From a virus (Duplodnaviria > Heunggongvirae > Uroviricota > Caudoviricetes): DNA of 46,158 nucleotides. The first letter of the stretch is position 1. Every line of letters begins with the position of its first letter. This document shows, piece by piece, positions 35,401 to 38,400 of the stretch. The stretch lies in the IMG/VR virus record IMGVR_UViG_2859799533_000010; one strand, written 5' to 3'. The position numbers were made by a program.

Positions 35401-38400
35401 GGAAGCCGGATTACTGGCATCAACAGGAAGTACAGGCGACTCGTATGACAACGCGATGGCGGAGAGCATCAATGGTCTTTACAAAGCGGAGGTAATACAC
35501 CGTAAGAGCTGGAAAAACCGTGCAGAAGTGGAACTGGCCACACTCACGTGGGTGGACTGGTATAACAATCGACGATTGCTGGAAAGGCTGGGCCATACTC
35601 CTCCGGCAGAAGCAGAAAAAGCTTATTATGCTTCCATCGGAAACGATGATCTGGCAGCCTGAGTTCACAGATAAAACACTCTCCAGGAAACCCGGGGCGG
35701 TTCAGCAGTTCAAAACCAATACGCCCGCGAATAAAAGCAATATGATCTGCATCTTCCGGCCACCACACTTCGCTGGTGGCAGCTTTGATCAGGAAAACAT
35801 AGCGCCCGCCCTTATCACGCATGGCACTGGCATGCTTCATGATGTAACGCATGCCGGTGATGTATTGCCCCTCATGCTGACTGGCGCGGCTGTATGGGGG
35901 ATTTCCAAAGGCAGCACCTTTAAGCTCCGCAAGGCGTTCTGACCAGTCATGCGCCAGCGCGTTGTCTTCCGCCGTGTAATACGCAGCGCATTTGGCGTTA
36001 TCACCGTCAGTGAACAGATCCAGAACAAACGGACCAAACAGGGTGTTAATTCCCCAGAAAATGTTGTCCGGCGTGCGCCACTGATCGCCCACTTCCTTCA
36101 GTTCATGGGCTGGTTTGTTCCGCAGTTCCACCAGCTCCTGGCAATATTTATTACTCATTAAGCCCCCACGTAATTCCCTGACAGATACCACTCATCACCC
36201 GATACAGCGCGCTTGCTGCTTTTCCGTAAACACTGCTCACGACGCGCCAGAAAATTGTTTCGTTCTGGCTGGGAGTGGCTTTCACGGAATGCCGCCATCC
36301 ACACCGTTGCAGCACGACGGTATAAGCCCCTGGACTCCAGTTCTTCAGCCTGGCGGGTCAGGCATAAAATCTCCCGCGGGTCGTTAGTGCCGACATAGAA
36401 ATTGCGCACAGGTCTGGTTTCACGAACTGGTTGCCGTTCCGCCTCCGGCGATATCTTTATCTGGCGCGGAAAATGTCTGCGTGTATCCCCTTCACAACGG
36501 TGAGCCACACGCCCACTCTGACGTAACTTGCTTGCTGACTGCAGAACGCGCTGCCGTGAGTAACCTGCAAAAGCATCCGCAATGTCTCCGGAAGTACACC
36601 CCGGATGGGCTTCAATGAATTTCTGAACTTCATTCAAAAGACTCATGATCACCCCCTGAATCCTGCCGGGATCTGGCTGTAGTCCACGTTGTCGTAACTG
36701 GCTTTGAAGTACGGGTCCTCACGTCTGGCTGCAGATACCGCAGGAACTTCCCAGGATTCTTCGAAATGACGATCCGGACCAAAGAACGTGACAGCCTGTT
36801 TCACAAATTGTGTGCCGCTGTTACCCATCGCAGATACCCAGCCCGCATAGCGTTTCACACCTTCCAGCATGGTTTCGGGGTTTACCCCCTCATTCAAACG
36901 GGCTTTCCAGACTTTGAAAGCTGCAGATTTTGAATTGCCACCAGTACGTTTGGGATATGCCAGCCATGCCTGCTCAAACTCCGGAGAGTATTCCGGTCGG
37001 TTTGAACGAACTCGCACAGACTCATCAGCAGATGCACCAACAGCTATTGGTTCATTGACTGGTTCTTTGACTGGTTCAAAAGAGTGACTGGTTCTGGGTG
37101 AATCTCCTGCACTACCCCCTAGTGCAACTCCTGCACTACCTGGTGAATTTGCTGCACCAGATAGTGAATTATTTGCACTACCCCCTAGTGAATCTCCTGC
37201 ACCATCCAGATGAAGGAGATAGATATTACTTGAGTTACCTTTTTCACCTTTCCGGGTGACTTTTTTTACCAGCCCGGACTCACAAAGGGCCGCAATATGA
37301 TTCATCACAGAACGTTTGCTAATCTCGCACTGGTCAGCAATATGCTGGTAGCTGGGCCAGCACTCACCCTGATCGCTGGCATTATCAGCCAGCTTGATCA
37401 GAACCAGTTTTCGCAATGGATTACCCACTCGAATTTTCATCGCTTTAACCATCAGCTCCATACTCATGCTGCACCTCCGAGATGCTTCATGTTTTTTCCG
37501 GAGCGAAAGGCTATAAGCGGCATACTGACGCGGTAATTACGGCCCAGCGGTTCACAAATCACCTTCTGACATTCACGGTCAACCAGGCTGACACGTAGAA
37601 CATGCCCTGCTGGCGTGGTGTACCACTGCCCAACTGTGGGTGTTGATATTTTTTTACGCTGAAATAAACGGTAAATGTTGAGGAGCAACGGATTAAGCAT
37701 GACGATGCCCTCCGCTGATATTCAGGAGACGGTGAATATGAAAATTAGCCTTATCCGCCAGACGAATACGTTCAGCTTGCAAGTTAAGAAGGGTTTCTAC
37801 CAGAACCTGATGTGCCTGCGGATCCGAAAGAGTTACCTTGCGCAGAGCACGTAGTGCAGTTGTTACATAACTGAGTTTATGTAAGTCTTCATCATTCAGA
37901 CGAGTGAGGGCTGGGACAGTAGCCATGATGGCAGCCTCCTTGATCGGTGAAATACTTCCACCACCGGAAACGCCAATTTCGCTGGTGGTGAACTGAACGG
38001 GGTTGGCGTAACCGGTGATCAAGGAAACCGGCGCATCTTTCGATGCCCCCGCCCAGCCCACCATAACTTTGATGTGAGCAAATGCGGACGATAAAAAAGA
38101 CGCTGGCGCGTCATATATCGCCTTGATCAATTCCAGGACGCCAATCCCGGCCCCCGCTTTATAAGGTGCCTGAACAGTGTAACGTCCCGGAATGGCAGAA
38201 TCAATGTGCTGGTGGTCCTTCACACTCAACAAAATCACGCTTGAATTTCCACAAAGGACTAAAGCACTCATGCGGGTAGTCTTTGCGAAGATAGATAACG
38301 CGCTGTGTTTCTGGCTCCCAACGAATAACATGAACATAAAGTCCTCTTCCGTCACGAAACCAGCGGTTAAGTTCCTGCACAACTCGCCCCCCACAGTCAG

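Follow-up and report, generated by a model that had tools for sequence, protein, structure and literature searches.

Does a PerC-family gene that lies among the early genes of a lambdoid prophage control virulence loci of the host, as PerC and the Pch proteins do in pathogenic Escherichia coli, or does it serve the phage that carries it? The question is raised by a 46,158-nt stretch of tailed-phage DNA (Caudoviricetes; IMG/VR virus record IMGVR_UViG_2859799533_000010), referred to throughout as the window, in which a first-pass annotation had pointed to a PerC-family regulator and proposed that the prophage could thereby modulate host gene expression. We find that the open reading frame (ORF) in question is, near certainly, the ortholog of E. 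coli K-12 yfdN (b2357), that its protein is a distinct two-domain PerC subtype differing from the Pch-type activators, and that the gene is a conserved early-operon component of SfV/mEp460/ST64B-type lambdoid phages rather than a moron. The product is probably a DNA-binding regulator of early phage development.

The ORF is full length, and the coordinates first assigned to it proved exact. The sequence signature that had attracted attention is likewise present, well beyond chance expectation, in the C-terminal third of the translation:

36158..36652, minus strand: yfdN-like coding sequence of 164 aa, intact, with a GTG start and its TAA stop at 36158..36160 (ORF listing of the window; identity to K-12 YfdN and to yfdN-annotated loci, as given below)
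36296..36343, minus strand: the ELESRGLYRRAATVWM motif, residues 104-119, holding the invariant residues L105, G109, R113 and A114 (translation)

An in-frame ATG at 36646, two codons after the GTG, would give a protein of 162 aa if used as the start; it is the start kept in distant homologs (MSL...) and the one chosen in the SfV annotation.

The window protein aligns with K-12 YfdN without gaps over its full length, with 148 of 164 residues identical (90%), and, at the DNA level, the window locus shares 99.9% identity with prophage loci of many strains, E. coli IAI39 among them. Both K-12 YfdN and the protein at those loci carry the same name in the Prokaryotic Genome Annotation Pipeline (PGAP), 'yfdN: PerC family transcriptional regulator', which RefSeq also gives to near-identical proteins. 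The order initiator, yfdN, dam in the window is that of K-12, IAI39, SfV and ST64B, and this shared neighbourhood, with full-length high identity, places the protein in the YfdN orthologous group. In K-12, where the gene belongs to the CPS-53/KpLE1 cryptic prophage, yfdO (initiator) lies upstream and yfdM (dam) downstream, but only truncated remnants of both are left and the cI/cro region has been lost, whereas the window prophage is near complete and retains an immunity region and a full-length initiator gene. The gene also occurs in the records of SfV (orf40, 'transcriptional activator'), SfII, SfIV and mEp460, in Stx2c- and Stx2a-converting phages, and in ST64B, whose equivalent protein, Sb43, is 67% identical to the window protein and is annotated as similar to b2357. 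About 200 homologs were found in a collection of 5.8 billion proteins. Uhlich et al. term yfdN 'the K12 unique PerC homologue' (PMC5931665). The PerC-family assignment is therefore correct, but it was already on record under the name yfdN and hence is not new.

Membership in the PerC family is supported by several comparisons. A search with the PerC profile, the check that the first-pass annotation had itself named, gave a match above the curated threshold (Pfam PF06069; score 39.1 bits, gathering score 22.6, E 8.9e-10) that spans residues 100-153 and profile positions 5-58 of 90, and all 31 full-length homologs match the same profile. The whole protein matches PHROG 1324 ('transcriptional activator') at E 8e-76. 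Residues A102, L105, G109, R113, A114 and C141 are invariant in an alignment with PerC of enteropathogenic E. coli (EPEC), PchA, PchE and short homologs, and the core common to EPEC PerC (encoded on pEAF) and PchA/B/C of enterohaemorrhagic E. coli can be written A-x2-LE-x2-G-x2-RRAA-x2-W ... R-x2-C. Both YfdN and the PerC/Pch proteins are encoded on horizontally acquired elements. The resemblance in sequence, however, is confined to about 55 residues. Identity to PerC, PchA and PchE is 31-38% (whole-alignment figures), and BLASTP of YfdN against EPEC PerC gives 32% over 56 residues. The C-terminal extension of PerC and Pch (30-40 residues; profile positions ~59-90) is absent from YfdN, which ends instead in W-x-L-x-G-x-[YF]-x-G. 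PerC and Pch are single-domain proteins of 89-104 aa; YfdN is not such a small protein (~90-104 aa with a PerC/Pch C-terminal segment), since it adds an N-terminal domain of about 62 residues and a linker. Nor does it fall within Pch group 1 (PchA/B/C), with about 34% identity to PchA in the core only and an early-operon location.

In an AlphaFold2 model, for which 31 sequences were used (mean predicted local distance difference test score, pLDDT, 77.8), the two halves of YfdN are apparent:

36467..36646, minus strand: N-terminal winged-helix domain, residues 3-62 (predicted structure)
36380..36466, minus strand: variable linker, predicted to be disordered, residues 63-91 (pLDDT 43-67; variable alignment; dN 0.151, dS 0.101)
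36194..36379, minus strand: C-terminal PerC domain, residues 92-153, three helices, TPR-like (predicted structure)

In the model, the N-terminus is a three-helix bundle with a beta-hairpin wing (helices 5-15, 21-27 and 33-45; hairpin 49-62), a fold of the MarR/MecI/ArsR kind. In sequence-profile searches the window protein matches a PHROG 'MarR family' profile at E 1.2e-4, and 5 of the 31 homologs match MarR_2, Penicillinase_R or HTH_24, with E values of 3e-4 to 5e-4. The linker is gapped as well as variable among the aligned homologs, and the three C-terminal helices, within residues 92-145, are modelled at pLDDT 90-94. Searches of the PDB by sequence and by profile returned no solved PerC-family structure and only weak TPR-like matches. 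A HMMER search over 1.8 billion cluster representatives brought up full-length relatives with identities as low as 25-47%, and both halves are kept in every one of them. Compared with K-12 yfdN, the dN/dS ratio is about 0.2 for the winged helix, about 0.15 for the PerC domain and about 1.5 for the linker, values that indicate purifying selection on both folded domains.

The position of the gene is conserved as well. In the window it lies on the minus strand, downstream of an immunity region from which the early genes are read:

39412..40086, plus strand: CI-like repressor with an S24 peptidase domain (Pfam Peptidase_S24, E 2e-26; SfV cI in the same position), divergent from the yfdN operon
37693..39321, minus strand: early-right genes 5' of the initiator, namely a cro/YdaS-like gene (~39121..39321), a CII-like gene (38526..39089) and an Ash-family gene (37693..38529) (Pfam; PGAP and SfV annotation of near-identical loci)
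36649..37467, minus strand: O-like replication initiator (HTH_36/DnaD_N), 272 aa (Pfam; junction sequence; SfV orf39, 'replication protein')
35705..36158, minus strand: 5' part of the phage dam gene (Pfam Dam PF05869, E 8.6e-39), truncated by an insertion sequence (IS)

The minus-strand order from the CI-like repressor is thus cro/YdaS-like, CII-like, Ash-family, a 78-aa ORF, the O-like initiator, yfdN and dam, followed by a protein consisting of a LexA_DNA_bind domain only, RusA, KilA-N, DUF968 and Q. The first-pass description of this as a nin-like region is roughly right, in that the replication initiator lies on one side of the gene and a dam/rusA/.../Q segment on the other. Gene models for 37693..38529 disagree: we read a single 278-aa ORF, PGAP divides the IAI39 equivalent into an Ash-family gene and a DUF4222 gene, and SfV has one gene, orf37.

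The genes are tightly packed. The initiator TGA overlaps the yfdN GTG (GTGA; TGATCATG) and ends 2 nt ahead of the ATG, the junction reading AGGGGGTGATCATG; at the other end, where the sequence is GGGGGCTTAATG, the dam ATG overlaps the yfdN stop (TAATG). SfV and ST64B have the same gene order around yfdN as the window, and six loci with homologs at 25-47% identity keep the order cI, cro, cII-like, initiator, YfdN, methyltransferase, LexA_DNA_bind, RusA, Q. In these six, the YfdN-like gene overlaps the initiator stop or begins a few nucleotides away; next comes a methyltransferase, drawn from three different Pfam families, or no methyltransferase at all, and after that LexA_DNA_bind, RusA, DUF968 and Q. 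As a separate observation, the slot after the YfdN-like gene, compared in the window and five other loci, holds Dam (PF05869), MT-A70 (PF05063) or MethyltransfD12 (PF02086), which are unrelated, or is empty; a protein made up of a LexA-type DNA-binding domain alone comes after that slot in each sufficiently long locus (33868..34194 in the window).

Because yfdN lies inside an operon running rightward from a cI/cro-like immunity region, it is expected, by analogy with other lambdoid phages, to be silent in a repressed lysogen; the gene should be repressed while lysogeny is stable and expressed on induction. Combining this expectation with the identity, the architecture and the conserved position, we think it reasonably probable that YfdN, taken as a whole, is a DNA-binding early-phage regulator: a two-domain component of the early operon that is made on induction and tunes transcription. 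YfdN would be produced once the CI-like repressor is inactivated, and would be missing from the quiet lysogen. The winged helix would place the protein on DNA, while the TPR-like PerC domain would contact a partner protein or a nucleoprotein complex. Precedent offers two kinds of candidate partner, one from Pch, which activates LEE1 (LEE, locus of enterocyte effacement) by lowering H-NS/StpA occupancy (PMC4764244), and one from the ANR family, to which the PerC domain bears a sub-threshold similarity. The net effect would be to adjust transcription in early lytic development, on phage DNA and possibly at some host genes.

Several observations weigh against this proposal. No Pfam helix-turn-helix profile matches the window protein at its curated threshold, and the winged helix comes from the predicted structure; the TPR-like label, for its part, describes a modelled fold and not homology, as small three-helix models match many helical repeats. 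A promoter scan found no consensus promoter on the yfdN strand, not even pR, and is uninformative on transcription, while co-transcription of yfdN with its neighbours is deduced solely from gene packing, and in the SfV record a putative promoter for dam is marked within the yfdN-equivalent gene. The gene is truncated or deleted in about 10% of the viral contigs sampled, which suggests that it is dispensable in resident prophages. With respect to a partner, Fukui et al. cite unpublished data in which PchA failed to co-precipitate with H-NS (PMC4764244), and direct contact between a PerC domain and H-NS is therefore not established. Finally, the literature searched contains no experiment on regulation or DNA binding by any YfdN-type protein.

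The losses of yfdN take two forms: in twelve of the loci compared, the gene is either deleted, so that dam adjoins the initiator, or cut to 32-111 codons. A few of the short copies may be cuts at contig ends.

A broader version of the proposal, which we offer tentatively and regard as rather doubtful, is that YfdN-type proteins, rather than being accessory cargo for virulence regulation, are a core early-development factor of the widespread lambdoid lineage that includes SfV, mEp460, ST64B and the Stx2c phages, a winged helix tethered to a TPR-like PerC domain whose native phage role YfdN would represent. Such a factor would be inherited with the initiator and would act on phage DNA near the origin or the early operon, for instance by clearing H-NS-type silencing or by assisting the initiator; the short PerC, Pch and ANR virulence regulators would then be stand-alone derivatives of its PerC domain.

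Among the competing explanations, the one that survives best, although we consider it unlikely, is that YfdN is an ANR-like negative regulator whose PerC domain inactivates an AraC-family factor of host or phage, or an H-NS-type protein, leading to repression or anti-activation. The best NCBIfam match of YfdN is indeed ANR_neg_reg (NF033650; 23 bits, E 5.2e-5), a score that exceeds those of PerC (18.2), PchE (17.9) and PchA (13.6) against the same model but stays, like them, under the curated cut-off of 32 bits. The similarity covers the same helical core, and the profile scores suggest a distant relationship between PerC and ANR as helical modules. A TPR-like fold is, moreover, a typical protein-binding module, and precedent exists in PerC homologs encoded by phage-inducible chromosomal islands (PICIs), which had no effect on LEE1 or repressed it; for the PICI protein that silenced LEE1, the authors proposed an ANR-like function (PMC11773190). 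Against this, ANR proteins such as Aar are small and single-domain, lacking the winged helix that YfdN carries.

Slightly different in kind, and in our judgement quite improbable, is the idea that YfdN is not a transcription factor but an accessory of the replication module, working with the O-like initiator at the phage origin from the position that P or Ren would occupy. The initiator gene itself contains a candidate origin:

37094..37204, strand not assigned: iteron-like repeats within the initiator gene, a probable replication origin (four copies of a 21-nt unit and a 26-nt inverted repeat)

The repeat unit has a consensus of approximately CCTRGTGAATCTCCTGCAC, and the arrangement looks like a lambda-style origin embedded in the initiator gene. 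The modules sampled have no recognisable helicase loader or helicase gene, and YfdN always comes directly after the initiator, overlapping its stop or a few nucleotides from it. The initiator also ends in a C-terminal tail, ...EDPYFKASYDNVDYSQIPAGFRG, that is common to at least five different initiator bodies; its pattern is [FY]-K-x-S-[YF]-x-x-VDY-x-x-IP-x-GFRG (36652..36720 in the window; also in loci L009, L012, L015, L016 and L019 to L138). A degenerate DNA pattern for the tail matched 120 viral contigs, and in 115 of them a YfdN-like gene comes next; with one exception, its start falls within a span that runs from 4 nt ahead of the end of the stop codon to 2 nt past it. The tail codons of the window differ from those of a locus with a 47%-identical YfdN by seven synonymous and four non-synonymous changes.

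Other observations weaken this link. The tail occurs in one phage type that has no YfdN (L091), where a Dam-type methylase gene comes next, as well as in 3-4 prophages from which yfdN has been deleted and about ten in which it is truncated; because it persists where yfdN is absent, deleted or truncated, the tail is independent of YfdN. Adjacency is expected from linkage alone in mosaic phage genomes, and physical linkage accounts by itself for much of the tail-YfdN association. The yfdN ribosome-binding site (AGGGGG) also places some constraint on the last tail residues. The tail (...SYDNVDYSQIPAGFRG) might act as a docking peptide that a host factor or the TPR-like domain of YfdN recognises, and the evidence speaks neither for nor against its binding YfdN. 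The loss of yfdN from a share of contigs, noted above, also counts against a role for the protein in replication.

Like YfdN, lambda Ren is encoded just after the replication genes and shows a weak likeness to the YfdN winged helix (hhalign probability 57%, E 1e-4, residues 6-53 against Ren 4-50; phrog_142, E 0.011), but it has no PerC domain, homology is not established at this hhalign probability, and Ren itself has no known role in replication. Ren (lambda ren, L018, 2281..2571) may be a stand-alone version of the YfdN winged helix. The more specific candidate, a P-like helicase loader, was rejected: neither YfdN domain aligns with lambda P in hhalign.

The reading with which the locus was first presented, that the gene encodes a PerC/Pch-like activator of chromosomal virulence loci (LEE1/ler and other Pch targets) that could act even from a defective prophage, is very unlikely. 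It has a real basis in a genuine PerC domain with the conserved core residues and in the demonstrated activation of LEE1 by PerC and PchABC (PMC5931665, PMC4764244). Uhlich et al., furthermore, took the precaution of deleting yfdN from the K-12 strain that carried their ler::lacZ reporter, judging cross-talk plausible (PMC5931665). The extent of the similarity argues the other way: as described above, it is limited to the helical core, the C-terminal segment of PerC and Pch is lacking and a winged helix is present in addition. Genomic context differs too. The gene for PchA, in Sakai prophage Sp4, is placed like a moron, a lone gene on the opposite strand beside lysis genes, and perC belongs to the perABC operon, whereas yfdN is part of a repressor-controlled early operon; the window contains no LEE or other target. 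On architecture and context, Pch-type control of host virulence genes by this prophage is unlikely, and the claim is unsupported for the YfdN subtype.

Nor is activation the rule among the PerC homologs tested outside PchABC. PchD had no effect on ler and PchE less than a two-fold effect, so that both show little or no LEE1/ler activation (PMC5931665), and the PICI homologs behave as described above. PchE (Sakai Sp7) and PICI proteins such as EcCIMP1_025 belong, like YfdN, to the PerC family, and they are not LEE activators; family membership therefore does not predict the direction of regulation. They differ from YfdN in being single-domain proteins of about 90 aa (90 aa for pchE, in the satellite-like element Sp7) encoded in satellite-type elements beside primase and single-stranded DNA-binding protein genes, and not in a lambdoid early operon.

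An effect of YfdN on the host is on record. Over-expression of K-12 yfdN in the ASKA screen gave a glycogen-deficient phenotype (PMC2853380), and YfdN can therefore alter host physiology. A nitric-oxide transcriptome of strain CFT073 lists yfdN with other prophage genes, and a filamentation screen in UTI89 scored, as a whole, a five-gene region that includes yfdN2.

The prophage, for which the first-pass annotation allowed that it might be defective, looks largely complete. It is of the mEp460/Ayreon-like lambdoid kind: 76-84% of the window aligns with those two phages at about 97% identity, and its structural genes are apparently full-length. The one obvious lesion is the insertion in dam:

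34396..35704, plus strand: IS3-family element (IS1203/IS629-like), 1309 bp, bounded by a 5-bp duplication (alignment to the IAI39 locus, where dam is uninterrupted; transposase ORFs; PGAP names on related loci)
34191..34395, minus strand: 3' remainder of the interrupted dam gene (coordinates carried over from the intact dam of IAI39)

The exact IS junction is absent from the complete E. coli genomes in our collection, in which the best match is 98.2% identical and in four pieces. The insertion is expected to be harmless to yfdN, because it lies 3' of that gene in the direction of transcription; its location, with the early genes on one side and Q on the other, may make it polar on the genes toward Q and on late-gene activation. 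That yfdN is itself a decaying, non-functional remnant without a role, as the split dam next to it and the truncated copies in some prophages might hint, is extremely improbable given that the ORF is full length in the window, that both domains show the signs of purifying selection and that the gene is carried by the plaque-forming phages SfV, SfII, SfIV, mEp460 and ST64B.

As an annotation, the present assignment adds nothing, as RefSeq already names the protein a PerC-family regulator and the gene is the ortholog of K-12 yfdN. It does carry a caution, that a match to the PerC family should not be taken to mean 'LEE activator' or 'virulence activator', because the YfdN subtype differs in architecture and genomic role and because LEE activation is not seen for the homologs tested outside PchABC. 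A function for yfdN would cover a y-gene present in many prophages of E. coli, Shigella and Salmonella, including Stx2c phages, and work on it might reveal how the PerC domain operates in the phage context to which it is native.

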